Source: an uncultured Candidatus Sumerlaeota bacterium (GTDB taxonomy: Bacteria > Sumerlaeota > Sumerlaeia > UBA8349). From it: DNA of 64,000 nt. Made by a program: the position numbers and the translations under genes. Where the stretch lies: positions 4,770,973 to 4,834,972 of the forward strand of contig OW818685.1 of assembly GCA_942493245.1 (NCBI GenBank), given 5' to 3'. The stretch's first letter is position 1. Every line of letters begins with the position of its first letter. Of the stretch, positions 1-57,808 are shown piece after piece. The notes beneath the pieces are model-generated. The model saw only the letters and a program-made list of their open reading frames with translations, made no database searches and was not told where the DNA came from.

Positions 1-1730
1 GGCTCGGGGTCCGGTTCCTGTTTCTGAAAGGCCGCCACCACTTCCTCGAGATACGCTGCCGCGTCGAACATTACATCGAACACCTCGTCGCGCAGTTCGA
101 GGGCGCGGCGGCGCGCGCGCTCCAGAAGCGACTCGACCTTGTGGGTGATCCCCGCCGGGCGTTCGGCGCCGTACATCGTCAGGTTGCCCTTGATCGAGTG
201 CATCAGGCGGAAAACCGAGTCGGCGGTTTCGGTGTCGCGTTTCTCGTCGAGCGCCAGCAGTTCGCGATTCAAGCGGCCCAACATGGATTCGAGTTCCTGC
301 AGGAAGACCGAGTCGGGCAGCGCGCCTTCTCCCGCGTCCTCTTCCCCCGCCGCGCGGCGTTCGAGCGGCATGTGGCACGGCTCATCCGCACCTGCCTGGG
401 ACATCTCGCGCTTCGGTTTTTCGACGGCGCCGGACGGGGATACACCTCCCTTGAAACGCCCCACGGCGCTCCGGGCGTCCACCTCGACCTCGCGGCCCAG
501 AGTCAAGGTGAACAGTTCCGGCAAGTCAATCACCATGCCCAGCTGCCGCCCGCTCAGGGTCGCGGTACCCAGAAGCCCCTCGACCTTCAGCCCTTCATCA
601 AATTCCGAAATCACAATTTTCTGCGGGCTAAGGAAGTCGGAAACGCAGTAGGCAAGCCGTTCTTTCTTGTGCTCGATGATAATCACGCGCAACAGGTCGT
701 CCTGTACCTCGAGGGGCGCCTCGCCAAACACCGCCATCAAATCGAAAAGAGGCAGAATGTTCCCCAGATACATGATCGAACGGGCCCGACCCGTCGTGGT
801 CGTCACCTCCTTCACATTCACCGAAAGCGACGCCACAACCGCCGAAATCGGGAAAACAAACGTGTTGTTGCGCGCCCGCACCAGCAGCGAGTCGGAAATG
901 TTGACCGCCGTCACCAACGGCATCACCAGTGAAAAGGTCGAACCGCGTCCCGGCACACTCTGGACCCGCGTCTCGCCTCCGATGGCGGCCATCGCGTCGC
1001 GCACAACGTCCAGCCCCACGCCCCGACCCGACGTTCCAGTCGTTTCGCGAGCGGTCGAAAAACCCGGCTGGAATAGAAATTCGAACAAGGTATCCTCGGC
1101 CAAGCCTTCGGCTGTGGCTTCATCCACCAACCCCATCTCGACCGCCTTGCGCCGAATGGCGTCGAGTTGAAGCCCCCGGCCGTCGTCCACCACCTCAATG
1201 ATCGTGAAATTGTCCACGTTGCGCACCCGGACTGTAACCTCGCCCACCGGATCTTTTCCCACCGCCTGACGCGTTTCGCGATCCTCAATGCCGTGGTCTA
1301 TCGCATTGCGGATCTGGTGAGCCACCGGGTCGTAGATGCGCTCGGAGATTTTCTTGTCTATGCAGATCTCCTCGCCCTCCAGTTTGAAACGGATCGGCTT
1401 GCCCAGCCGCCGCGAGGTATCGCGCGCCAGCCGCCGGAACCGCGCAAACAGGTCCGACATGTCCACCGTCCGGACATCCGTCACCAGGTTATGGAGATCG
1501 GACGAGATGCGTGAGGAGGTGATCGCCAGATCCTTGGCGTCCTCGGACAGCATCCGGGACACGGACATGCCTTCGTGCAACTGGTGACTCAGGGCGTTCA
1601 GGTTCGCGCTGACAATAATGACCTCGCCCGCCAGTTCGAGCATCTTGTCCAACCGGCTCAGCCGCACCACCATGCTTTCTTCCCCCACGCCCACCAGGGA
1701 CGCGCGAACAGGTTCTCTGCTTTCAGACAT
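1..1730 (-). CDS. cheA: CheA-like chemosensory histidine kinase, C-terminus beyond window start. Domain order in the visible part is P3 dimerization, HATPase_c (P4), CheW-like (P5), then Hpt.
   Basis: My own translation of the minus strand from ATG at 1730..1728 runs with no stop to position 1. N-terminus MSESREPVRASLVGVGEESMVVRLSRLDKMLELAGEVIIV is the CheA P3/P4 junction. HATPase_c motifs are present (DDGRGL; GRGVGLDVVRDAMAAIGGETRVQSVPGRGSTFSLVMPL). A CheW-like block follows (LLVRARNNTFVFPISAVV...GRQLGMVIDLPELF). Near window positions 60-330 there is an Hpt domain (FLQELESMLGRLNRELLALDE...FRLMHSIKGNLTMYGAERPAGITHKVESLLERAR). The six-frame track does not list this ORF because it has no in-window stop. 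Confidence 0.8.
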   Translation of the reverse strand, partial: MSESREPVRASLVGVGEESMVVRLSRLDKMLELAGEVIIVSANLNALSHQLHEGMSVSRMLSEDAKDLAITSSRISSDLHNLVTDVRTVDMSDLFARFRRLARDTSRRLGKPIRFKLEGEEICIDKKISERIYDPVAHQIRNAIDHGIEDRETRQAVGKDPVGEVTVRVRNVDNFTIIEVVDDGRGLQLDAIRRKAVEMGLVDEATAEGLAEDTLFEFLFQPGFSTARETTGTSGRGVGLDVVRDAMAAIGGETRVQSVPGRGSTFSLVMPLVTAVNISDSLLVRARNNTFVFPISAVVASLSVNVKEVTTTTGRARSIMYLGNILPLFDLMAVFGEAPLEVQDDLLRVIIIEHKKERLAYCVSDFLSPQKIVISEFDEGLKVEGLLGTATLSGRQLGMVIDLPELFTLTLGREVEVDARSAVGRFKGGVSPSGAVEKPKREMSQAGADEPCHMPLERRAAGEEDAGEGALPDSVFLQELESMLGRLNRELLALDEKRDTETADSVFRLMHSIKGNLTMYGAERPAGITHKVESLLERARRRALELRDEVFDVMFDAAAYLEEVVAAFQKQEPDPE

Positions 1731-4527: not shown

Positions 4528-4611
4528 CTGTCGGTCCTGACGATCAGCCGTTCCGTCCCGGAGGGACGGCTGAAAAACCAGGGGTAACCGACAGCCGTCC
4601 CTCCGGGACGG
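4528..4611. other. Structured palindromic element: inverted duplication of a CCGTCCC-N3-GGGACGG hairpin enclosed by an 8-bp long-range stem
   Basis: CTGTCGGT (4528-4535) pairs with ACCGACAG (4587-4594). Hairpin CCGTCCCGGAGGGACGG is at 4553-4569 and its reverse-complement copy CCGTCCCTCCGGGACGG is at 4595-4611. It is intergenic, downstream of the giant gene and upstream of the CMP-kinase-like gene. Confidence 0.45.
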
Positions 4612-5002: not shown

Positions 5003-8000
5003 TCATTCCACGATACCTGCCGCGCTCGTGTGGATGATAAACTGCGTGACAGGCGGTTGAGCCGGTTTGAACTTCGGCCTGGCTTTCGGATCGGTCGAAA
5101 TGAAAGCCTCACCCTCGATCCGGCCCGTTTTCGACGTGGTGATGCTCTTGATCCCGCCGGTGTAGACGGCCGTGCCGTCCTCCTGGAAGCCCGCGTAGAA
5201 CTGGCCCGACACCCCGTTCAGACCCGACAGAGTCGTGATACAGGAAATCGTTCCGGTCTTCGGCTGCGCCAGCACTCGCATGCGGCTCGGTTCCCACGGG
5301 AAGCCCAGGTAGCCGCCCAGATAGACGGTCCCCACCTTGACGGTCTTCGCCGACAGAAGCGCGATCGGTCCCGCGCTCTTCAACTCCGACGTCCTCAGGT
5401 TGCCCTGCAGGATCCGGGTGCCCACCGTTGTGGTGGCATAGGCGCCCCCGCTCACCATCACCTTTGCGACCGGCCCCTGCGTACCCTGCAGTAAGCCGAG
5501 CGCCACCGGTCCACCGGTGGATTGCACCAGCGCGAAACTCGGCGCGGAGAGCCAGGTGTCCTGAACCGACAGGAGCGTTCCGCCCTTGACATCCTTATCC
5601 ACGTCGCCCAGGGCGCCGATACCCGCCTGGCTGAAGCGCTTTTCCTTCGTGGCCGAGTCTTTGAACTTGCGCGTGGCCACCTTGACGTACTTCACCGGCT
5701 GCGAGGTCAAAAGGCCCTCGAGCACTGCGCCGTTGATCGCCACCGACAGGGGAATACTTCCCACCGTCTGAATGGAGGTGACGCCAAACTCGGTAAAGTT
5801 CGTCCGCGACGAATTGTATGACGCCGTGATCTTCAACGTCCCGACGTCCCCGCCCTTGTAATCTTCCAAGCCGTTGGCCGCTGTCACCGACTTGACCGAA
5901 GAGGCCTGCATCCGGTAGATCGGCGCATCCGAGGCGAACGTGCCAAAGAGGCCCGGAATCACAACCGACGGAATCTCGCGCGTTTCGAGGTATGCGGTCC
6001 CCGGTTTCGCCACCGTGCCACTCGCCGTTCCGGCAGGCAGTCCCTTGGGCAGCCACTTGATCTTGATCGCGCTCTTGTCCGTGGTGCCGTTCAGGGTCAG
6101 GCCACCCGTGGTCGGAGTATCGAATGCCAGCGTGATGTCCTTGCTGTACGTGATCTTATACGCGCGCAGTGGCAATGTCGGGAGGAAGAGCCACCCCTGA
6201 GCCGGACCGCCCAGAGCGCCGGCGTTTTCACCCGCCGCGCCGTTGGCCGCCTGCACCCAGTAGTAGTACGTCTGACGCCGCTTCGCGGTCACATCCTCGA
6301 AACTTGCGGAGGACTGCCACAAACTGATCGCCTGCGGCGTGTCGGTCGGCGATTCGGCGCGATAGACCCGGTAGTAATACCCGTAACCCGCCAGGGGTTG
6401 CCACGAAACGTTGACCCTGCTGCCCCATTCGCCCTGACTGGCCGCCAGACCGCCCGGCGTCGGGATCGGCGCCACATAGAGCGTCGTGAACGTCCAGACC
6501 GGTCCACTGGTACTGCCAATGGCGTTCTTCGCCACCACCTTCCAGTTGTAAACCGTGTTCGATTCCAGTGAACCCGACGGCGTGAACTGCGTTCCACCCA
6601 GATCGCTCGCCATCGGCGTGGACGGCGTCGGATCGGCCGGTTTCCACAGATAGAAGTCGTGGCTCAGAGCGTTCGAGCCGCCACTCCAGTAGAACGTGGG
6701 AGTCAGCGACACATCCACCGCCCCATTCGACGGGTTGGGCCAGCTGGGCGCGCCCGGCGCCCCGACAACCCGCGTGACAAACGTGAAAATGTCACTCGAC
6801 GTCTGTCCCGCCCAGTTCACCGCCGTGACCTGCCAGGTGTACGTGGTCCCTCCCTGGAAAGTCGGACTGTTCCACCAGTAATAACTCCAGGTCGCCGATA
6901 CCGTCGTGGGGGTGGCGTCGCCCTGTTTCCAGACCGACAGAATGTAACTGTCGGCGTTGGCCGCGTCGTTCCAGTCGAAGGTGGGATCTTCCAGCACGCC
7001 TTCGGCGTTGTTCTCCGGCGAAATCAACTGCGGTTTCTCCGGGGTCACAATCGCCCGCGTCGTGAAACTCCACTCCGGACCCGGCGTTTGCCCCACCATG
7101 TTGCGAGCCACCACCTGCCACTTGTACGTTGTGGCGCCCTCGAGCATCGCGGACGGCGTGTAGTGACTCGCGGTCAGATCGGTCACGGTCGGTTGCGCCG
7201 GTTTGGCGTCCGTGGACTTCCAGAGGTACAGATCGTACTTCGAAGCCGCCGACGAGTCGGCCCAGTCCAGCGCGGTCGTCGGGAGAACCGCCGTGGCCCC
7301 ATCCGACGGAGTCGGTCCGCCCGGCTCACCGGGCAGCGCCGGCGTCTCGGTCGTGAACGACCACAACGCCCCGAGCGTTTCACCCTTGGCGTTCCCGGCA
7401 GTCACGAACCAGTAGTACTTCGTATTGCCCTCGAGCGCTCCCGCCGGTTTGAACGAACTGGCGGTCAGCCCCGACGTGGTCGGAACCGTCGGACGAGGTT
7501 GCGCGGACGGCCACAGGTACACGTTGTACCAGAGCGCATCGGTCGCATCGGACCAGTCGAGCGTCTTATCCACCGACACGTTCGTTTCACCCACATAGGG
7601 GGATGGACTGTCGGGAATCACCGGCTCGGGCGAACCCACACGCTGGGTACGGAACGTCCAGACCGGCCCGACCGTATCGCCCGTCGCGTTGCGCGCCACC
7701 ACCTGCCACTTGTACACCGTGTTGTACGCCAGATCGCCCGGATCGTACTCGGTCGAGTAGGCATAGTTGGGCCAGCCGGGTTTTCCATCCACCTCGCGCC
7801 AGACATAAATCAGGTAGTAACTGCCGGCCCGCGCGGACGCTTCCCAGGCCAGATTGATCGCCACCGAAACGCCGGTGGAATTATCGGGTGGGTTGAGCAG
7901 CTTCGGTACGCTCGGCGCGCCCTCGATATGGGTCCGGAAACTCCACTCCGGTCCGGCCTTCTGGTTGGTCTTGCCATTGACCACCACCTGCCACTGGTAC

Positions 8001-11000
8001 TCGGTGTCGAAGTCGAGATCCGCCGTCGGCTTCCACGCCGGGTCAGTCAAACCTGTTATTGTCGGCGCGACCGGCTTCGCCTGAGTCTTCTTCCACAGGT
8101 AGAGATCCCAGGAAAGCGCTCCGGCCGAACGGCCCCACGTCATCGTCGCATCCACCGGAATGGAAAGCGAAGCGTCTTCCGGGTAGGGCGAGAAGGGCGC
8201 CTGAATGTCCGTGCGGAACGTCCAGACCGGTCCTTCCGTCGAATCCACCCGGTTTTTCGCCACCACCTGCCACGAATACGTCGTCAGGTAGTCGAGGGCG
8301 GCGGGCAGCGGATACTGACTGACCGACAGCGCCTCGGCGGTGAACGTGGTGGGCACAGGTTTGTCGGCCCGCCAGAACTTCAGGTCGTAAGATGTCGCCA
8401 TCGGCGTGTCGGCCCAGTCCAGTTGCAACGCGACCGATGCGGTCGTTGCGCCGTCCGCCGGAGCGGGTTGCGCCGGGGTCTCGGGTTTCAGCAGGATCGT
8501 CGTGAAGGTCCAGGTCGGCCCCTCGGTCCCCCCCGCCGTGTTGCGCGCCACGACTTTCCACTTGTAACTGGCGTCGTAGGGCAACGTCTGCGGCGGCGAG
8601 TACTGACTCACCGTCAAACCCGACGTGGTGGGCGACCAGGGTTGCCCTTCCGTCGCTTTCCAGAGATAGACGTCGTAGGTCGCCACGCGCTTCGAGTCCG
8701 CCCAGTCCAGCGTCAAGGTGACGGGCGCAGTGGTTGAATTGTCCTCGGGGTTGGGCGTCGTGGGCGCTTCCGGCGCAGTCAGATAGATCGTCCGGAACGC
8801 GGATTCCGTACTCGCCACCGTTCCCTGTGCGTTGCGCGCCACCACCTGCCAGCGGTAATCCGTCCAGTAGGCCAGACCGCCCGGTACCTGGAAGGTCTTG
8901 CCCATCAGCCCCGCCTGAGTCGGAACAACCGGTTTGGCCTCATTCGACTTCCACAGATAGAAGTCATACGAATCGGTCAAGCCGCCGCCGCTCCAGTTGA
9001 AGGTCACATCCGACTCGACGTTGGTGGCGTTGTTGGCCGGGGTCAGCAGAATCGGGCGTTCGGGCCAGATGGACGGCGCAAACGTCACCTGATCGACCCA
9101 CCCGGCGTTACTGCCCGCCGTCCACCACCCACGCGTATAGACCCACTTGAGCGAGTGCGATCCGGCGGGCACCTCGACGGTCTGTGAGGTCCAGCCCACT
9201 TCGCCGTTGATCGAGACCTGTTGCGCATCGTCAATGTAGAACCGCAGCGTGGTGTCGGTGTGCGCCGAGAGTTTCCACCAGAACGTCAACGTGCGATGCT
9301 CGGTCGTCGAGATGTCGGCGCGCAACGTGCTCGGCACGTTATAGCCCGTGTTGCCGCTCTGCGCCGCATCAACGCCGTCGTGCGTCACCTCGGTCTGATA
9401 GAACCACGTTGCGTCCCCTTCGGTGGACCATGTCATGGGCAGCAGGTTCGCATCCACCGAGTTAGCCAGATTCTTCGGATAGACGCTCAACAGCCACGAT
9501 TCTTCGTCCGAACCCAGTTCGTTCGTGGCGCGAATGGTCACCGTGGTGACCCCCTCGGTCGCCGAAGCCCACGAGACCACGCCGGTGCCGGCGTCAATCG
9601 TCATGCCCTGCGGACCGGCCACCAGCGACCAGGCGATCGGCTGCGCGCCCTGAACCATCTCCGGTGTCGGACCGGTATAAGATTCACCGACCGAGACCGA
9701 AGCGTCGGGAATTTCAACAATGACCGGCGCCTGCGGATCAATGATATTCAGAGTCACCTGCGTCTGCATCGCGGTGCCAAGCTCCACATACCGCGCGGTC
9801 AATGTGACCTGGGATGGGGTCGGAGCATCCGGATCAATCGTGATCTCGACTCCGTTAATCTCAACATAATCCGCCGGAGCCGCCTCGAACTCGATCGTCG
9901 AGGTCACGTTCAGACGCGTACCGTTCACATAGTTGACAAACGCGCGTCCGTTGATCACATTGCCCGGACTGACGTTGATCTCAGTCCCTTCGGCCATCGC
10001 CTTCGACACCACCCGACCCACTCCGTCTTCCACCTGCGCGGAAAGCGCCTTGAGGGTCGAGGACGTCTCGGGGAAGTCCAGATAGACTTCGAGGTTGCCC
10101 GCCAGGACGCGGTGATAGAGCGACACGTAGCCCTCGCGCCAGCCGATCATCAGCGTCTGGTCGTTGTTGCTGAATCCCACCGACGCTGCGCCGATGTTCT
10201 CCTCACCCATACCCGAAGCCGGCAGGAACTCGCGGATCGTCGAGCCGTCGTTCATGTTGATGAGCCGCACCGGGCGCGCCGATTGCCCCGGCTTGCTGCC
10301 GCCCGAAACACCCACCAGCGCCAGCGTCCCATCCTCGGAAATGGCCACGGTGAAGGACGCGTCCACCGACTCGCCCATCAGCGCATCCACCGTCACACTC
10401 ATGATGAAAATATCATTGACCAGAGAGGGACCGGCGACCAGGTCCGAAATGTCGTAGGTCTCCAGATAGTACATGTGGGTCTGTTCAATATCGTCTCCCG
10501 AGACCTCCTCGGTCACGGCCACACACCGTGTGCCCAGTTCGTTCACAAACAACTGCAAGGGCGAGTGGCGCGTCTTCATGCCGTTGAACAACAGACCCGC
10601 GCTGTTCCAGATCCCGATAAACCGTTCATTGTACATGCCGCCCAGGAAGTGGTTCTCGAGGCGGAAGTCAAGAGCGCCCGCCACACGGGATTCCTCGCGA
10701 ATCTGGCTCAGGTTCGCCAGATCCCACAGCCGCACCTTCGAGTCCGCCGTCACCATCCGCGTTCCCTGCGGCGAGATGGCAAACGCAGACGCCGGGGTAT
10801 GCAGCGTTTTCCAGAGCAGATCGTTGGCCGTATCGTACATGAAGATCGAAACGCCCACGCGCGTGGCCAGTTTCGAACTGTCGTTGGTAAAGTCCATGCC
10901 CTCGAACTTCGGGTCAATGAAGTACCCGGTTTCCATCAGGCGCGTCGCGGTCATATCCACCCGGTTTGTCCCCGGTGTCCACTTCATGGTCCGCTTCGGA

Positions 11001-36085: not shown

Positions 36086-36157
36086 AGGGGACACGGGCGT
36101 TCCGCCCGTGAAGCGGTTTGGATCATGGGTGGGACGCCCATGCCCCCTTTTTTTATT
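36086..36157 (+). repeat. Family-2 REP-like palindromic element (a), doubling as an intrinsic terminator after alsD
   Basis: GGACACGGGCGTTCCGCCCGTGAA ... GGTGGGACGCCCATGCCCCC is followed by TTTTTTT. It shares the CAYGGGCG-N3-CGCCCRTG core with the elements at 42976, 54724 and 56578. Confidence 0.6.
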
Positions 36158-36272
36158 GTGTCAATCGATCCTTTTGCAAAAGTCGTTGAATGACTCGATT
36201 TTCAGGTGAGCATTGAGGGTTTATCCTTCTCCGATCTTGCGACTTAAACCTCCCGGCACTCGTCTCCCTTTT

Positions 36273-36392
36273 GTCATCCCCGCGAACGCGGGGACCCAGA
36301 GGAGCGCGAACGGGAAAACAGGGGGGGAACTCAGGGGAAACGCAATCAACCAGAACGTCCCGGATCTGGGTTCCCGCTTTCGCGGGAATGAC
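36273..36392. repeat. Family-1 double-hairpin repeat, copy 2
   Basis: Near-identical ends to copy 1 (GTCATCCCCGCGAACGCGGGGACCCAGAG ... CTGGGTTCCCGCTTTCGCGGGAATGAC). It is flanked at about 100 bp on each side by the perfect 12-bp palindrome CTTTTGCAAAAG (36171-36182 and 36473-36484). Confidence 0.75.
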
Positions 36393-36515
36393 GAAAAGTG
36401 GAATGGCGTTTAGACCCGAATGTAAAAAACATTCAAAACGATCAACCCAACTTTGTCGCCGTTTACTCCATACTTTTGCAAAAGGCTCAATCACCTCGAA
36501 AAGGAGACCGGAAAG

Positions 36516-42975: not shown

Positions 42976-43137
42976 GAGGCACGGTTGTCTTGCCCGTGAA
43001 GCAAGAGGAGGCACGGGCGTTCCGCCCGTGAGTCGGTTTGTCCCGCCGGCGCGGTTCCGATGGAAACTCGGGGGAAGGTTCCAGATTTCGGAGGCCCTTA
43101 TAATATGGACAACATGGTCGGGACGCCCATGCCACCT
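42976..43137. repeat. Family-2 REP-like element (b)
   Basis: The left end has a tandem of GAGGCACGG...GCCCGTGAAG and GAGGAGGCACGGGCGTTCCGCCCGTGA. The right inverted partner is GGTCGGGACGCCCATGCCACCTC at 43118-43137. Confidence 0.6.
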
Positions 43138-49127: not shown

Positions 49128-51359
49128 GTGTTCTATTCAGTCGAGTGGGGGAGACACCGGGCCGTGGATGACTCGGAAAAAACACGCGAAGCGTTGCTTG
49201 CGGAAGTACGCGACTTGCGGCTTCGGCTTCAAGCCGCGGAAATCGAAAACCGGCGGGCCGACGCCTCCTGGTATGAAGCGACGCTGCACGCCTGGCAAAA
49301 CAGCGAGGAGCGCTACCGCCGCCTGGTGGAGTATTGCCCGGATGGAATTGCGGTCCACTGCGAAGGCCGGATCGTGTTTGCCAATCCGGCGATGGCGGAA
49401 ATCCTGGGAACGACCCCATCCGAACTTCTGGGAAAAACTCTCTGGGAAATCGTGCATCCGAATTGCTGGAACGTTGTCCGCGAGCGGCTCGATCTGTTGA
49501 TTCAGAAGGGCGAAACGGTTCCCCGGATCGAAGAGAAGATGGTCCGCCTCGACGGTTCAACGGTGGACGTGGATGTGGTGGCGTTGCCCTTTCTTTACGA
49601 AGACCGGCAGGCGGTTCAGATTCTGGTGCGCGATATCTCCCGGAACAAATGGGTCGAGGAGGAACTGCGCGAAAGCGAGAAACGCTTCCGGCGGATCACC
49701 GAGGCGGTGACGGATTACGTCTATAGGGTTTACGTGGATCAGGGCCGGCCGGTCCGGACCATTCACGGCTCGTCCTGCGAAAAAGTGACCGGTTACACTC
49801 CCGAGGAATTCGCGGCGGACCCATTTCTCTGGATCCGGATGGTTCCCCCCGAAGAGCATGAAATTGTCCACGCGCAGATTCGGCATGTTCTGGCGGGTGA
49901 GGAACCGGAGACGATCGAGCACCGGATCATTCGCAAGAACGGCGAGGAACGCTGGATCTGCAATACACAGGTGCCGCACTATGACCCGTCGGGGCAGGTC
50001 TTGTGTATTGACGGTTTGATTCGCGATATTTCCAAGCGCAAACGCGCCGAACGCGAGCGCAACGAGATGCAGGCGCTGGTGCAGTCGGCCCGCAAGCATG
50101 AGAGCCTGAGCGTGCTGGCGCGCGGCATTGCCCACGATTTCAAGAACATCGTGACGGTCATGTCGGGTTTCGCGGCAGTCGCTCTGGGGAAGATTCCGGG
50201 CGAACACCCGGTGACGGAGTGCCTGCGTCATATCCGGGCGGCGGGTGAGCGCGCCGTCGAACTGGTCAACCGGGTTCTGCTTTTCAGTCAGGACCGGGCC
50301 GAGGGAAGCCATCCCATGCGGTTTCAGGATGCGGCGAATGAGACCGTGGCCTTGCTCGACAGCATTCTGCCGCCCAAGGTCCATCTCCGGTCGCGGATTG
50401 CGCCGGATTGCAGCCACATTTGTGCGGACCCGATTCAGATTCACCAGGTGGTTATGAATCTGTGTACCAACGCCCTGCATGCCATGCAGGACGGGCGAGG
50501 GGGAACGCTGACGGTCGAGTTGGAAGAAGTGCGTCTGGATGCTCCGTGGGCGACTCGGCAGGTCACCCTGTTGCCGGGGCGCTATGTGCGCCTGAGCGTG
50601 GCCGACACCGGGTGTGGAATTCCCCCGGAGATTCTGGACCGGATCTTCGAGCCTTATTTCACGACCCGCAACGGGGGAGAGGGAACCGGTCTGGGGTTGG
50701 CGACGGTCCAAGGGATCATCAACAGCTATGGGGGAGCCATCACCGTCCAGAGCGAAGTGGGGCATGGGAGTGTTTTCCGGGTTTACCTGCCCACTTGCGG
50801 CACCCCGCCACTGGAACGGGCGCCCGAAGGCGAAGGCCAGGAACCGGAACTCGTGATGGATGCGGTCTCGGAAGAACGATCCCCGGAGCCGCCTGTCGAG
50901 GAGCCGTTCGAGTCGCTCCCGCCGGTGTCCGGACGCCCCTGGATTCTTCTGACCGATGTGGACTCCGCCATTCTGAATCTGGGGCAAATGGCACTCGAAT
51001 ATATGGGGTACCGGGTGTTGCCTTTCGATTCTTGCGAGGACGCCCTGCAGGCCTACCGCGAGGCGCCGGATCGGTTCGACCTGGTGGCGACGGGTCTGAT
51101 CTTTCCCGATCGCTCGGGATTCGATTTCCTGCGCGAAGTGCGCGAAATCTGTGAAACACAAGTGGTGGTCCTGCTGGCCGGGGAAGATCAGATTCTGGAC
51201 AGCAACGAAGTCTTGGACGTCGGTTTCGACGACTGGCTGGAAAAACCCTTCTCCACAGAGGCCCTCGTGGATTTCGTCAAGAAAACACTGGCCCGTTTCC
51301 CGAAGAAAACGCGGGAAGAGAAAGAGCCGGGAGAACTTCCGGAAGACGCAATCTACTGA
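49128..51359 (+). CDS. Cytoplasmic multi-PAS sensor histidine kinase with C-terminal pseudo-receiver domain
   Basis: PAS/PAC repeats, HisKA (ARGIAHDFKN), HATPase_c, and a REC-like C-terminus in which the phospho-acceptor position reads DLVATGLIFPD (Gly in place of Asp). GTG start at 49128. An alternative start is GTG 49164. Confidence 0.82.
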   Translation: MFYSVEWGRHRAVDDSEKTREALLAEVRDLRLRLQAAEIENRRADASWYEATLHAWQNSEERYRRLVEYCPDGIAVHCEGRIVFANPAMAEILGTTPSELLGKTLWEIVHPNCWNVVRERLDLLIQKGETVPRIEEKMVRLDGSTVDVDVVALPFLYEDRQAVQILVRDISRNKWVEEELRESEKRFRRITEAVTDYVYRVYVDQGRPVRTIHGSSCEKVTGYTPEEFAADPFLWIRMVPPEEHEIVHAQIRHVLAGEEPETIEHRIIRKNGEERWICNTQVPHYDPSGQVLCIDGLIRDISKRKRAERERNEMQALVQSARKHESLSVLARGIAHDFKNIVTVMSGFAAVALGKIPGEHPVTECLRHIRAAGERAVELVNRVLLFSQDRAEGSHPMRFQDAANETVALLDSILPPKVHLRSRIAPDCSHICADPIQIHQVVMNLCTNALHAMQDGRGGTLTVELEEVRLDAPWATRQVTLLPGRYVRLSVADTGCGIPPEILDRIFEPYFTTRNGGEGTGLGLATVQGIINSYGGAITVQSEVGHGSVFRVYLPTCGTPPLERAPEGEGQEPELVMDAVSEERSPEPPVEEPFESLPPVSGRPWILLTDVDSAILNLGQMALEYMGYRVLPFDSCEDALQAYREAPDRFDLVATGLIFPDRSGFDFLREVREICETQVVVLLAGEDQILDSNEVLDVGFDDWLEKPFSTEALVDFVKKTLARFPKKTREEKEPGELPEDAIY

Positions 51360-51488
51360 GCCTTTTACAAAAGTAATTGGGTCTGCGGCGAAAAAGCGGG
51401 GAGATTTTTTGGCGAGAACGCATGTTCATTCACCTTTACCGCTCAGATCGCCTTTTTTCGACTTTTTCAGAGGTTCGATACTATTCAG

Positions 51489-51705
51489 GTGGCCCCGAAG
51501 GGGCCTCCCGATCAGTAGCCGTGGGTGACCGAAGGGAACCCACGGACAGGGAATTGCCTATTTCGCACCCTGAAGGGGTGCCCCAACGAAAGTGAAATCA
51601 ATGATTGGGGAACCCCTTCGGGGTTTGATTTATTATGGGGACATATTCCGTAGGTTCCCTTCGGTCACCTACGGCTACTGAAGGGGAATCCCTTCGGGAT
51701 TCAAC
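51489..51705. repeat. Cluster of six GC hairpins with CGAAGG/CCTTCG loops; two 32-nt units are inverted copies (MITE-like, family 4)
   Basis: U2 AGTAGCCGTGGGTGACCGAAGGGAACCCACGG (51514-51545) and U5 CCGTAGGTTCCCTTCGGTCACCTACGGCTACT (51648-51679) are reverse complements with 2 compensatory changes. Four further hairpins (GGCCCCGAAGGGGCC, GCACCCTGAAGGGGTGC, AACCCCTTCGGGGTT, GAATCCCTTCGGGATTC) lie between and around them. Confidence 0.55.
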
Positions 51706-51847
51706 AACAACATCTTTCCTTTGAGCCTTTAAAAAGTATCCGGTAAACAGCGAAGACTTTTGCAAGAGGCTCTACTGAAGAATCGAGAAAATCCCCGAGT
51801 TTCCGGTAAAGCCGCTCTTCTATTGTGCCGATAACATGTTCGTGGGC

Positions 51848-51876
51848 TTGAGATTTCAGGCGCACAGAGGTAAAAT
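51848..51876 (+). promoter_or_regulatory. Candidate sigma70 promoter for the comEA-like gene (TTGAGA-17-TAAAAT)
   Basis: -35 at 51848-51853 and -10 at 51871-51876, about 65 nt upstream of ATG 51945. Confidence 0.45.
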
Positions 51877-51944
51877 AGCGTTCCGCTGTGGCGCTCAGGT
51901 GAAGCAAGCCGCGCACGAGCGATCCGGAATCCGGGAGAGGTGGC

Positions 51945-53264
51945 ATGGTCAATCGAAACACGGAAAAACGCGGTACAAACGGGTGGCGCCAGTGGGCGCC
52001 GTTTGTGGGAATTCTTGCGTGGGTGGGACTGGGTCTTTTTTTGCCAGACCCGACGGTACGAGCGGTTGACACGCCGTCGGGGAAAGCGCCGGTTTCCGTG
52101 GCGTTGCCTTCGGCAAGCGCGAAGGCTTCCCTGGGAAAATCTGTTCCGGCTCAATCGGCCAACGGGACCCCTGATCGAACGGTAAAACCCAAAACCGCGA
52201 AATCCGAGGCGAAAGCGGCAAAACCGGAGAAAGTCTCCACCCCGGATGCGACCGTTCCCCGCAATGCCGCAACTCCTGCGGCAGCCCCCCTCCAAGGGCC
52301 GAAAGTGTACCCGATCACCAGCGTTTTTGTGAAAGAAGAATTGCCGGAAGAGAAAACATTGCCCCCGCCTCCGCCCCCTGCGCCGCTGGATCTGGGAGTG
52401 GCGCCAGAAGTGCAGCTGTTTCCGGAGTGGGCCAGGTCGGCCACCTCGGCAACCCAGTCTCAACCATTTCCGTCCGGAGCGGTCGCCGATGCGCGTGTCT
52501 CGACCCAGACGGCTGTTGCGAAAACGCCCGAACCGGCTCCTGCTGGTCCTCCGGAGCCTCAAGACCCTGAGGGGGCTGCTCCCGGGCAATCGAGCGGGGT
52601 GAAAGCCGTGTCGGCCCCGGCATCGGTTCCTTCGAAGGCGGATTTCGTTCTGGCCGCCTCGGAAACAACAGGAACACTGAATTCGACTCCGCTTGCGACA
52701 CAACCGGCGCAGATTGCCGCGGCTGCGCCTACCGCAGTCGTTGTTCCTAAGTCTGGTCCTGCAACCGCCAAAGCGCTCACCGCAAAGAACGGCCAAAAGG
52801 GATCTGGGGTCAAAGTTTCTCCGTTCCCAACACCGTCCATCAAGCCTCCGTCGCCCACCGCGCCCACAAAAGAAAATCCGCTCGACTTGAACACGGCCAC
52901 CCGCGCCCAATTGATGGAGTTGCCGGGTGTGGACGGAATTCGGGCCGATTTGATTCTGGCGCATCGCCGCGCCATCGGATCGTTTCGGGCAGCCACCCAG
53001 CTACGCGAAGTGTATGGGATTTCCGACACGATCTGGGAACAGGTGGCGGATCTGGTGATCGCGGTTCCGGGCGCAACAAGTAAACCGGGCAGGGCTGCCT
53101 CGGCTTCGAGGTTGCCGCTGGACAAGGTACTCAAACCCGCGCTCCCCCAATCGCCCGTCCGTCCGAAATTGCCCACCCCCCCTGCGCATCCTGTCGCGCC
53201 AGCCGGGACGGCGTACCCGGATTTGTCCACACGGCCTTCGGCTACTCCCCTTGCCGGGAAATAA
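51945..53264 (+). CDS. ComEA-like helix-hairpin-helix DNA-binding protein with N-terminal TM anchor and long Pro/Ala-rich linker
   Basis: The TM segment is WAPFVGILAWVGLGLFL. The HhH core is LDLNTATRAQLMELPGVDGIRADLILAHRRAIGSFRAATQLREVYGISDTIWEQVADLV. GGAGAGG RBS. Confidence 0.8.
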   Translation: MVNRNTEKRGTNGWRQWAPFVGILAWVGLGLFLPDPTVRAVDTPSGKAPVSVALPSASAKASLGKSVPAQSANGTPDRTVKPKTAKSEAKAAKPEKVSTPDATVPRNAATPAAAPLQGPKVYPITSVFVKEELPEEKTLPPPPPPAPLDLGVAPEVQLFPEWARSATSATQSQPFPSGAVADARVSTQTAVAKTPEPAPAGPPEPQDPEGAAPGQSSGVKAVSAPASVPSKADFVLAASETTGTLNSTPLATQPAQIAAAAPTAVVVPKSGPATAKALTAKNGQKGSGVKVSPFPTPSIKPPSPTAPTKENPLDLNTATRAQLMELPGVDGIRADLILAHRRAIGSFRAATQLREVYGISDTIWEQVADLVIAVPGATSKPGRAASASRLPLDKVLKPALPQSPVRPKLPTPPAHPVAPAGTAYPDLSTRPSATPLAGK

Positions 53265-55861: not shown

Positions 55862-57808
55862 ATGGATAGCATGCCCCCGGAGGCCGTCGCCCCGTGTGTT
55901 GTGACTCGACGCCCCTCGAGCGGCGGAACGGGGCGTTTTTTTCTGCTGATATTCGGGTTGGCGCTTCTGGTGCGGGTGGCTGGGTTGGACGTGTTTCCCC
56001 CGGGGCTGTGGATGGACGAAGGGCTGAAGGGCATGGACGCGTGGCGCACCTGGCACGCAACGCGCTACGGTCCCGCCACCGGTCCCCTCTGGATCTATCC
56101 GGACATTTTTCCCCGCGAGCCGTTGTTTGTCTGGATTCAGAGCGTGGCGGTCACGCTCGGCGGGCCACGGGTGATCGTCCTGCGGTTGACGTCGGTGTTG
56201 ATCGGCTGTCTGGCTTGTCTGGCTTTTTTCGGTCTGGTGCGCTCGCTGGAACGGGAACGCGGCGCGCGGTTCGCGCTTGTGGCGGCGTTTGTGCTCTGTA
56301 CACTGCACTGGCATGCGCATTTCAGCCGATTGATCTTCCGGACCAATCTGGTCCCCCTCGTGGCGTGCTTGCTGGTGTGGGCGCTGTCCGCCGCCCGGCA
56401 TCGAGCGAACGCAGACCGCACAGGCGTGTTGCCATGGATCGCAGCCGGACTGTTCCTGGGTTTGGGATTTTATACGTATCTTTCCTGGTATTTCTTCCTG
56501 CCCGTGGCCGCCGTGTGGTTCTGGGCGCTGGCGGGAGGGGGTTCGCAAGCCCAGGAAGGTGACATGGGTGTTCCCCGAGGTGGCACGGGCGTCCCGCCCA
56601 TGAACGCAGTTGAAAATCATTCTCAGTCCCAGGAGGAACCCCTCACGGGCGAGACGCCCGTGCCACCTCAAACGGTCCCTCCTCTGGTTGTACAACCTCC
56701 GTTCGTACCTCCTCGGAAGAGGACAACTTTCTGGACCGCGCTGGCCGGAGTGTTGATCGGGGCGGTTCTGATCGTCTCGCCCCTGGTGGCGCATTATCTG
56801 TCCTCGCCCGGCGATCTGGTGGGGCGTCCGCAGGCGGTTTCGCCCCTTCAGAAGGGGTGGAAGGCCGGGTTGCAGCTCATGGGGCGCAATGCGCTGGATG
56901 TGGCCCTGATGTTCTCCTTCCGGGGCGACCATGTGGGGAAACACAACATTCCGGTCGAGACCGCCGAGGGGGAACGCCCCTATGGCAAGCCGGTTTTCGA
57001 TCTTGTGTGGTCCTTGTTCTTCTACGCGGGGTTACTCCGGGCGGGGTGGGAGGTCGTGCGCCGGGGCAAACAGTGCCGGCAATCTCTTGCCTGGTTCGCC
57101 TGGTTGGGGTGCATGTCGTTGCCGTCGGTGGTCACGCAGACCGATTCGGTCAACATGCTGCGCAATCTGGGAGTGACGCCTGCCGTGGCGTATTTTGTCG
57201 CGCTTGGCTGGTGGTGGGGGTATGAATCGGTTCAGCGCCTGGGCGCGGCGGTATCGTCCGAGGCGCTCGCGAGACGGAAACGGCTGCTGGGGGCGCTGCT
57301 GATCGGCCTGCTGGTCTATGGGGCCGGGTATCAGGTCTATAAGCTCTGGTACCTGCACCCGCAGGCGCCGGGGATGCAGGACCAGTTCAATTTCTACCAC
57401 GTGGCGCTGGCGGAGATGTGCGAAATCCCGCAGGACGCCCCTCAGACTCCCTCCGTGACGTTTGTACCCACGGACTACTACGAGCACCGGACTTTCGGGT
57501 TTCTGACGATCGAGCGCGGCGACATCCTGCCGCTCGACCCCGTGGCGCTTCTGTCGCGCCCGCTTGCGGGCAAGGCCCGTGTGGACCACCGGGTGATCTG
57601 TACGGACTACAATCCGCGCAATCTCAAGAGTTTGCGGACGCTTTTTCCCGACGCGTGGGTTGAGTCGAACACAATTCTGGTGCAGCCGCCCGGTGGCGGT
57701 CCCGAACAACCGGTGGCGCTGATGCTCCACATCCCCGCTGACAGTCTGTTGCCGCGCGCCGAGGCCAAACGCCAGGCGGCGCGGTTGCAGTTGAATACGC
57801 GGTACTGA
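55862..57808 (+). CDS. GT-C fold membrane glycosyltransferase, PMT_2/ArnT-like (GT39/GT83-like), carrying an in-frame REP insertion
   Basis: Multi-TM N-terminus with a DE-containing first periplasmic loop (GLWMDEGLKGMDAWRTW) and a soluble C-terminal domain. I prefer ATG 55862 (GAAGGA 7 nt upstream). The repeat at 56578-56669 is translated in frame as ...GDMGVPRGGTGVPPMNAVENHSQSQEEPLTGETPVPPQ... Confidence 0.78.
   Translation: MDSMPPEAVAPCVVTRRPSSGGTGRFFLLIFGLALLVRVAGLDVFPPGLWMDEGLKGMDAWRTWHATRYGPATGPLWIYPDIFPREPLFVWIQSVAVTLGGPRVIVLRLTSVLIGCLACLAFFGLVRSLERERGARFALVAAFVLCTLHWHAHFSRLIFRTNLVPLVACLLVWALSAARHRANADRTGVLPWIAAGLFLGLGFYTYLSWYFFLPVAAVWFWALAGGGSQAQEGDMGVPRGGTGVPPMNAVENHSQSQEEPLTGETPVPPQTVPPLVVQPPFVPPRKRTTFWTALAGVLIGAVLIVSPLVAHYLSSPGDLVGRPQAVSPLQKGWKAGLQLMGRNALDVALMFSFRGDHVGKHNIPVETAEGERPYGKPVFDLVWSLFFYAGLLRAGWEVVRRGKQCRQSLAWFAWLGCMSLPSVVTQTDSVNMLRNLGVTPAVAYFVALGWWWGYESVQRLGAAVSSEALARRKRLLGALLIGLLVYGAGYQVYKLWYLHPQAPGMQDQFNFYHVALAEMCEIPQDAPQTPSVTFVPTDYYEHRTFGFLTIERGDILPLDPVALLSRPLAGKARVDHRVICTDYNPRNLKSLRTLFPDAWVESNTILVQPPGGGPEQPVALMLHIPADSLLPRAEAKRQAARLQLNTRY
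56578..56669. repeat. Family-2 REP-like element (d), intragenic and in frame within the GT39-like gene
   Basis: GAGGTGGCACGGGCGTCCCGCCCATGAA ... TCACGGGCGAGACGCCCGTGCCACCTC. The arms are 25/27 inverted repeats. The length is 92 bp, which is not a multiple of 3, so either the local frame is preserved only together with adjacent sequence, or the predicted protein skips the element. Confidence 0.65.

Follow-up and report, generated by a model that had tools for sequence, protein, structure and literature searches.

Architecture of the hairpin cluster

The stretch of DNA analysed here, 64,000 nt of contig OW818685.1 in the assembly GCA_942493245.1 of an uncultured Candidatus Sumerlaeota bacterium (hereafter the window, or W), carries a dense cluster of GC-rich hairpins in the 585-bp spacer between two + strand genes, one for a hybrid PAS histidine kinase/receiver and one for a ComEA-like protein. 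A first-pass annotation had located six GC hairpins at 51489-51705 between these two genes; the neighbours are as it described, and all six hairpins were found in place. Our analysis indicates that the cluster is very probably a non-autonomous mobile element of the type of REPINs (repetitive extragenic palindrome (REP) doublets forming hairpins) and bacterial interspersed mosaic elements (BIMEs), belonging to the GTAG-tagged REP superfamily and carried as a passenger inside a miniature inverted-repeat transposable element (MITE). The coordinates of its parts are collected in Table 1.

Two of the six hairpins, U2 and U5 of the annotation (H2 and H5 in Table 1), are the core units of the element. 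H2 is built of an 8-bp stem, a tandem G.A/G.A and an inner CC-GAA-GG, 27 nt overall, and this 27-nt pattern has 2 matches in the window where 0.02 would be expected; the heads of both units face outward. U2 (51514-51545) and U5 (51648-51679) had been described as inverted copies with compensatory substitutions, and so they are: between U2 and the reverse complement of U5, 2 of 32 positions differ, a G to A change at stem position 5 and a C to T change at its partner, and the two changes compensate each other inside each local hairpin. The same substitutions break the long-range pair between U2 and U5 while keeping the local stems. The four remaining hairpins are accessory; H1 and H6, H2 and H5, and H3 and H4 mirror each other, with an inverted repeat of 46 nt at 87%. 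What the earlier reader missed is that the cluster is a single nested palindrome, since three hairpins followed by their mirror images make the whole of about 212 nt (51491-51702) one imperfect palindrome. Two inverted “compound REP” arms make up the element, each with a conserved GTAG-headed 27-nt hairpin between two accessory GC hairpins, and every loop is C-GAA-G when read on the strand of the GTAG head.

Folding of the cluster, which the annotation had called for, gave a very stable structure on both strands, with minimum free energies of -139.8 kcal/mol on the + strand and -134.9 kcal/mol on the - strand (z = -12.7 and -11.6, respectively), values equalled by 0 of 200 shuffles. When DNA parameters were used, each arm folded into three single-stranded DNA (ssDNA) hairpins, the left unit (51513-51548, +) giving -10.6 kcal/mol (z = -4.7) and the right unit (51645-51680, -) giving -9.2 kcal/mol (z = -5.1). 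The UUCG-type tetraloops that had been proposed for the hairpins hold only in part, as the symmetric stems give 3-nt GAA/TTC loops and the C(UUCG)G register costs pairs.

Table 1. Features of the kinase/ComEA-like spacer and its insertion, with positions in the window
Feature	Position	Strand	Description
Hybrid PAS histidine kinase/receiver gene, upstream	49128-51359	+	PAS/HisKA/HATPase/REC domains
Left TACT	51354-51357		4-bp target-site duplication
Composite insertion	51358-51772		415 bp; “beta” MITE shell + hairpin core; from alignment to relatives' spacers
Left terminal inverted repeat	51358-51374	+	17 nt, GAGCCTTTTACAAAAGT
Left shell	51375-51488		~80% conserved among composite copies
REPIN-like core	51491-51702		inverted doublet of three-hairpin REP arrays (H1-H2-H3 / H4-H5-H6)
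H1, accessory hairpin	51491-51505	+	GGCCCC-GAA-GGGGCC
GTAG head, left REP unit	51515-51518	+	unpaired, abuts stem on its 5' side
H2 (U2), core REP hairpin	51519-51545	+	CCGTGGGT-GA-CC-GAA-GG-GA-ACCCACGG
H3, accessory hairpin	51565-51581	+	GCACCCT-GAA-GGGGTGC
Central spacer	51582-51610		CCCAA...TTGGG; varies between copies
H4, accessory hairpin	51611-51625	+	AACCCC-TTC-GGGGTT, then T-rich run; terminator-like on + strand
H5 (U5), inverted core REP hairpin	51648-51674	-	bears compensatory A-T pair
GTAG head, right REP unit	51675-51678	-	reads CTAC on + strand
H6, accessory hairpin	51686-51702	+	GAATCCC-TTC-GGGATTC
Degenerate internal copy of terminal 17-mer	51722-51738	+	GAGCCTTT-AAAAAGTAT
Right terminal inverted repeat	51756-51772	-	GAGCCTCTTGCAAAAGT on - strand
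Right TACT	51773-51776		duplication
Promoter-like site of ComEA-like gene	51848-51876	+	TTGAGA-17-TAAAAT
ComEA-like gene, downstream	51945-53264	+	HHH_3

A composite insertion at the kinase stop codon

In orthologous kinase/ComEA-like spacers the cluster is missing, and these spacers measure 167 bp (L002, L004) and 302 bp (L001), where L numbers denote contigs or loci fetched from metagenome and genome collections. Alignment to them delimits a composite insertion in which a MITE shell surrounds the hairpin core. Its two terminal inverted repeats (TIRs) agree at 15 of 17 positions, and the 17-mer has 4 matches in the window at <=1 mismatch against 0.09 expected. The empty site in L002 reads ATCAAC-TGA-AGAAAATG, and the ancestral TGA survives in the window at 51776-51778, 419 bp downstream of the present stop codon of the kinase (TGA, 51357-51359), which is made of the duplicated T51357 and the GA of the TIR. 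At its C-terminus the kinase is intact; because the T of the duplication and the GA of the TIR rebuild TGA, the kinase protein is left unchanged. It would appear that insertion of the MITE struck the stop codon of the kinase gene, which was rebuilt with the GA of the TIR.

The same composite recurs with different flanks in L025 (477-936), L064/L081, L063/L075 and L027 (“beta” copies), and a second element of the same 17-nt ends is found in the window at 36167-36488 (322 bp, duplication AATC) with a different central hairpin doublet (“alpha”). Alpha copies were recovered in W (36167), three times in L006 and twice in L007, all with unrelated flanks. The shell has no coding capacity, and its copies lie at multiple unrelated sites. 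Given a TIR-bounded shell of 415 bp, a target-site duplication (TSD) and recurrence elsewhere, delivery as a passenger is the most likely origin of the window copy, which would have arrived by cut-and-paste MITE transposition with a 4-bp duplication, carrying the hairpin core along.

The suggestion of the first-pass annotation that the cluster is a MITE with hairpin TIRs was therefore right about mobility, the unit being dispersed and absent from the orthologous spacers, and wrong about the ends. Instead of forming the TIRs of a cut-and-paste MITE, U2 and U5 are REP-type hairpins with GTAG heads, which elsewhere occur as singlets, as doublets and as flanks of Y1/HUH transposase genes, and the real TIRs (51358-51374 and 51756-51772) and the TACT duplications lie outside the interval that had been marked.

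Two other readings of these sequences were tried and abandoned. The palindromic core of the 17-mer (CTTTTGCAAAAG) was considered as a regulator-binding site and rejected, as it is polar, with its GAGCC facing outward, marks the ends of two conserved multi-copy families, and coincides with indel boundaries and duplications. The short alpha copies (L006 3735-3953, L007 11170-11386) were considered as “empty shells” that would prove nested insertion; they keep half a hairpin, so that they look like internal deletions and give no proof of nesting. The alpha element at 36167-36488 has the inverted hairpin pair GTCATCCCCGCGAACGCGGGGACCCAG and CTGGGTTCCCGCTTTCGCGGGAATGAC and is followed after ~30 bp by a + strand ATG (36517). 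In L043, a 122-bp mini-element (7949-8070) is little beyond two 17-nt TIRs, and the region in which it is inserted has flanks that are inverted relative to each other (gcggagaaggaattc ... gaattctttctccgc) and contain many GCGGAG-type repeats.

Copies and distribution of the hairpin repeat

The family was searched with GTRGGTGACCGAAGGGAACCYAC, the 23-mer core of U2/U5, its variable stem pair being left free as R/Y. This core was found in 63 metagenome contigs and in 29 stretches of a 596-Gb collection of species-representative genomes, where ~0.07 were estimated by chance. At least 20 of the 29 are contigs of one Ca. Sumerlaeota metagenome-assembled genome (MAG) and 2 of a Sumerlaeia MAG, the rest being 2 from a Verrucomicrobiales MAG, 4 from a Chlamydiae MAG and 1 labelled Waddlia, with the proviso that the binning of repeat-bearing contigs into MAGs can be wrong. 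Many copies sit at contig ends, as expected of repeats, and such elements would account for assembly breaks in these MAGs. No core match was found in the viral collection, which leaves a phage origin unsupported.

Most copies of the core are without the 17-nt TIR, and inverted doublets 100-130 bp apart recur. Full copies of the 212-nt doublet with unrelated flanks were seen in L013, L029, L049, L059 and L033. Full doublets begin exactly at H1 and end at H6, and no target duplication surrounds this core in W, L089, L079, L078 or L071. In the 64-kb window the 212-nt core is a single copy (nhmmer profile, 51487-51707, E=1.5e-72). Three-hairpin singlets (H1-unit-H3) also occur, as do lineage-specific arrays with other accessory hairpins. 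The repeat is mostly extragenic, 15 of 68 units lying inside stop-free stretches of >=200 codons against a background of 86%, and the window copy is intergenic. Presence and absence between relatives were seen for the whole 415-bp composite only and not for bare 212-nt copies, which may nonetheless be mobile by themselves.

The head hexamer, counted in 75 copies, is GTAGCC in 23, ATAGCC in 22, CCAGCC in 13, CTAGCC in 7 and TTAGCC in 5. The core unit sequence is absent from the searchable literature, where its sole match is an unrelated primer. In the Verrucomicrobiales MAG, a tandem heptamer array CTTCGGA/CTTCGGG stands directly beside a hairpin array (L099, 1-80).

Local hairpins under selection

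The palindrome can pair in two ways, within each of the six hairpins or arm to arm, and the two leave different traces in the copies. At the free R/Y stem pair, the 75 non-redundant exact matches have G..C in 62 cases, A..T in 13 and a mixed pair in none. In an alignment of the 11 distinct full doublets collected (A3), the six local hairpins are paired in 95.8% of cells, with 6 pairs changed on both sides, a result that 0 of 500 shuffles reach; long-range pairing of the arms holds in 90.6%, with 5 such double changes, and 129 of 500 shuffles do as well. Covariation of this kind supports the local hairpins and not the long-range pairing, and it is on the local hairpins that selection acts. In addition, the arms keep consistently different accessory stems across copies (H1 versus H6 and H3 versus H4), so the doublet is not a recent inverted duplication. 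That the variable pair is never G.T agrees better with a constraint at the level of DNA, or of both strands, than with one on a single RNA strand.

Association with Y1 transposases

Arrays of the same kind were found on either side of transposase genes. In L056 and L039, mirrored arrays enclose a 163-aa Y1 transposase gene (PF01797); each side has the exact unit, heads outward, the flanking units being 600 bp apart in loci of this type. In L058 and L100, a 150-aa Y1 gene, 40% identical to the 163-aa one, is bracketed by arrays of the form H1 - GTAGCC - 8-bp stem hairpin - H3, with the unit on one side and a loop variant on the other. Such gene-bearing loci number 4 of ~100, gene-less hairpin copies being far commoner, and gene-less doublets such as L077 resemble Y1 transposons with the gene replaced by ~12 nt. 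Since the same arms, inverted and with heads outward, bracket Y1 genes, the doublet looks like a gene-deleted transposon.

JGI gives homologues of the flanked transposases the name RayT, used at the level of COGs for REP-associated tyrosine transposases (RAYTs), and the HUH motif and catalytic tyrosine of the enzymes align with those of the ISDra2 and IS608 TnpA. The unpaired GTAG/NTAG in front of the unit is what characterises the GTAG-tagged REP superfamily (PMC3733652), and both the GTAG and the hairpin are needed for binding and cleavage by the E. coli TnpA-REP (PMC3479197). By analogy with this enzyme, a RAYT-type Y1/HUH transposase would bind the hairpin and its GTAG head on ssDNA, cut and rejoin, and thereby spread the family. 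As a separate observation, an IS5/IS427-like DDE transposase of two overlapping open reading frames (ORFs; PF01609) adjoins the hairpin-flanked Y1 gene in L039 (226-973) and L056 (82-841).

Discussion

The cluster represents a new family of a known kind of element and not a new RNA or regulator. Several observations nonetheless weigh against its assignment to a REPIN/BIME-type element inside a MITE. In the retrieved loci, which are a biased sample from fragmented assemblies, singlet arrays seem to equal or outnumber doublets, and the source DNA itself has one element in 64 kb, the multi-copy status of the family being known from related genomes. No Y1 transposase was found by tblastn/tblastx in the window or on any contig attributable to Sumerlaeota, and the flanked Y1 genes come from metagenome contigs to which cluster names, shared repeats and tblastx assigned no taxon. 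The PDB matches of these enzymes are IS200/IS605 TnpAs, the E. coli RAYT structure not being recovered at E<=0.01, and the NCBIfam IS200 equivalog is scored at 54.8 against a cut-off of 55; sequence does not separate the two, so that it is solely the inverted flanking arrangement that decides between the names “RAYT” and “IS200-like”. As for the shell, a clean TSD is missing in 2 of 4 complete TIR-bounded elements (L025, L043), and an autonomous parent insertion sequence (IS) bounded by the 17-mer TIRs was not found in ~0.7 Mb of fetched loci and the window. With these two copies and no parent IS, the MITE-shell part is well supported and not complete.

Part of this evidence would suit another origin, in which the cluster is an IS200/IS605-derived palindrome-associated element (PATE) and the flanked Y1 genes belong to ordinary IS200-type insertion sequences present in many copies. 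In the PDB, the TnpAs of ISDra2 and IS608 match best, the IS200 assignment is borderline, and two 82%-identical Y1 paralogues occur in one metagenome assembly. We regard this origin as unlikely, however, because the flanking hairpins are inverted with their GTAG heads outward, which is the arrangement of a REPtron and not that of the same-strand left-end and right-end hairpins of IS200/IS605, and because gene-less copies vastly outnumber the gene-bearing ones.

A role selected by the host, as a multi-hairpin terminator or an mRNA-stabilising block between the two genes, is improbable in our view. It is true that the spacer has no terminator-like site other than H4 with its T-run, and that enterobacterial REPs stabilise upstream mRNA and attenuate transcription (PMC3479197, PMC3733652). 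Yet the relatives do without the cluster, a conserved hairpin-like motif (GTTTYCNGTAAAGCC) is kept downstream of the insertion in all four sequences, the number of terminator-like sites (1 found) does not exceed that obtained by shuffling (1.4), and the mirrored half has no gene to terminate. Of the terminator block that the first-pass annotation had put forward there is left a possible effect of H4; stabilisation of the 3' end and termination of the kinase transcript at H4 would be by-products of the insertion and are probably incidental.

Even less can be said for a structured non-coding or cis-regulatory RNA in the 3' untranslated region (UTR) of the kinase or the 5' UTR of the comEA-like gene, the third possibility raised at first. 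The fold is very stable on both strands, covariation supports the hairpins, transcription of the + strand genes would include the element, and Di Nocera et al. have argued that many REPs may act as RNA (PMC3733652). An RNA under selection at this locus is very unlikely all the same: the orthologous spacers do not have the region, which is not conserved there, yet they retain, on its downstream side, the block that precedes the comEA-like gene; copies stand in both orientations beside unrelated genes; 0 of 75 copies have G.U at the free stem position, as expected of a both-strand or DNA constraint; and the units flank transposase genes. The Rfam scan that had been asked for returned 0 matches at gathering thresholds in the window, and at permissive thresholds the best was RAGATH-32, with 18.4 bits against a threshold of 41.8, which is noise. 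Finally, a classical cut-and-paste MITE with U2 and U5 as its TIRs is hardly credible, for although the units are inverted, ~130 bp apart and members of a dispersed family, homology between copies reaches outward to H1 and H6, the 212-nt core is without target duplication in the five loci given above, the units also occur as singlets and as flanks of transposase genes 600 bp apart, and the associated enzyme is Y1/HUH, not DDE.

The REPIN/BIME-type element in its MITE shell finds its nearest parallels in several systems already described. Like the REPINs of Pseudomonas fluorescens SBW25, described with their RAYTs by Bertels and Rainey in 2011 (PMC3116915), it is an inverted REP doublet with a spacer, foldable into one long hairpin, extragenic, multi-copy and with compensatory changes; in both systems a Y1 transposase gene has these repeats on either side, inverted relative to each other, and single units are found alongside doublets. 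It differs from them in that the arm is of ~95 nt with three hairpins instead of one short REP and the doublet of ~212 nt instead of ~70-110, in that the accessory stems of the two arms are consistently unlike and covariation favours the local over the long hairpin, and in that the host belongs to Sumerlaeota or is related to the Planctomycetes-Verrucomicrobia-Chlamydiae (PVC) bacteria, with the flanked Y1 genes found outside Sumerlaeota-attributable contigs. The REPs and BIMEs of E. coli and their REPtron with TnpA-REP (Messing et al. 2012, PMC3479197) share the unpaired GTAG at the 5' side of an imperfect hairpin, mosaic REP clusters of alternating orientation mixed with other motifs, and an HUH/Tyr enzyme between REPs. 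Their sequence is different, the head being followed here by the CC of the stem, and for the enzymes found here no greater closeness to the E. coli RAYT than to IS200/IS605 TnpA could be detected.

A close description of the unit itself is that of the GTAG-tagged REPs (Di Nocera et al. 2013, PMC3733652), with their GTAG tag, 6-9-bp stem, non-complementary dinucleotides and GC-closed inner loop, the complex loops of some families (GTAG-3), their tail-to-tail dimers with 20-100-bp spacers and their clusters. PVC bacteria are included among their hosts, and REP units fused to unrelated stem-loops ([quoted passage not shown]) are described as well. The present family is set apart by a unit sequence that the searchable literature lacks and by an identical core in the MAGs of three phyla with unlike accessory hairpins. 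With IS200/IS605 elements and PATEs it shares the PF01797 fold family, the presumed recognition of subterminal ssDNA hairpins and a 5' guide tetranucleotide, and a 212-nt core without target duplication, whereas its end hairpins are inverted, not same-strand, and its doublet is palindromic. The shell has the 17-nt TIRs, in the window copy the 4-bp TSD, the lack of an ORF, the multiple copies and the presence or absence between relatives that are known from bacterial MITEs, and it departs from them, beyond having no parent IS in the fetched loci and the window, in that its core is a hairpin element of HUH type to which it is unrelated.

Vertical inheritance and lineage-specific REPs are what is usually reported of REPIN-RAYT systems. 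Here, a hairpin of 27-31 nt is identical in MAGs of Sumerlaeota, Verrucomicrobiales and Chlamydiae of 42 to 66% GC. The accessory hairpins around it vary from lineage to lineage, and identity between the flanked Y1 transposases is only ~40%. Perhaps, and we put this forward quite tentatively, a REPtron is moving horizontally between these phyla, or the GTAG-headed recognition hairpin is conserved far more than its enzyme; the three-hairpin C-GAA-G module would then be a functional ssDNA module, and nesting in a TIR-bounded MITE a second route of spread in which an HUH element travels on a DDE element. The exact core in three phyla bears on whether the inheritance of REPIN-RAYT systems is strictly vertical.

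What had been a candidate novel structured RNA is thus replaced by a concrete and testable explanation in terms of mobile DNA, and the GTAG-type REP/REPIN elements are extended to the little-studied phylum Sumerlaeota. The locus documents compound three-hairpin REP arms and offers a clear case of one non-autonomous element inside another, with a neutral landing on a stop codon. For annotation, such elements account for long spurious palindromes between genes in these MAGs.

Neighbouring genes and other repeats

Downstream of the insertion, and untouched by it, a block at ~51797-51880 upstream of the ComEA-like gene is kept in all relatives (GTTTYCNGTAAAGCC ... ATTGTGCCGATA ... GGGCTTGAGATYTC). 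It holds the sole sigma-70-like site of the spacer and probably represents the native promoter/leader of the ComEA-like gene. The kinase probably starts ~12 codons downstream of the annotated start of its ORF (database protein P0001, 731 aa). Its protein, with a 100% match on an NCBI contig and an 86% match named Ca. Sumerlaeota, places the organism in the Sumerlaeota. A 411-aa ORF at 51729-52964 (-), antisense to the ComEA-like gene, has no Pfam match and an arginine-rich nonsense composition; it is GC-driven and spurious, and could mislead annotation.

An alpha hairpin doublet is also found at 2324-2578, in a different shell with the TIRs (AC)CAGGAACTCCTCATTGTCTAG / CTATACAACGAGGAGTTCCTG and an apparent 8-bp duplication, TAAAAGAT. 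The TIR of this shell also adjoins a truncated hairpin array in L024 (~890-912). With the alpha doublet in two shells and the same TIR elsewhere, hairpin cores and TIR shells appear to combine modularly.

ISs that target REPs are known. In three hairpin arrays, L063 (~1-90, reverse strand), L010 (~2465-2536) and one further contig, the same sequence (...CCCCTACCTTCTTGACATATGTCACCCAGGTCGC...) breaks the array at one point of H4, which suggests an insertion sequence that would target the H4 hairpin.

Another REP-like family, GGCACGGGCG-TYC-CGCCCGTGA, which has no GTAG head, lies in the window at 36092-36110, 43012-43030 and 56577-56669, the last being an inverted pair (56577-56603/56643-56669), and it is common to the Sumerlaeota MAG contigs L022, L023, L032, L074, L095 and L096. 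One more small REPIN-like doublet is formed by the perfect 20-nt inverted pair CCGTCCCGGAGGGACGGCTG / CAGCCGTCCCTCCGGGACGG at 4553-4611, both arms of which are hairpins themselves.

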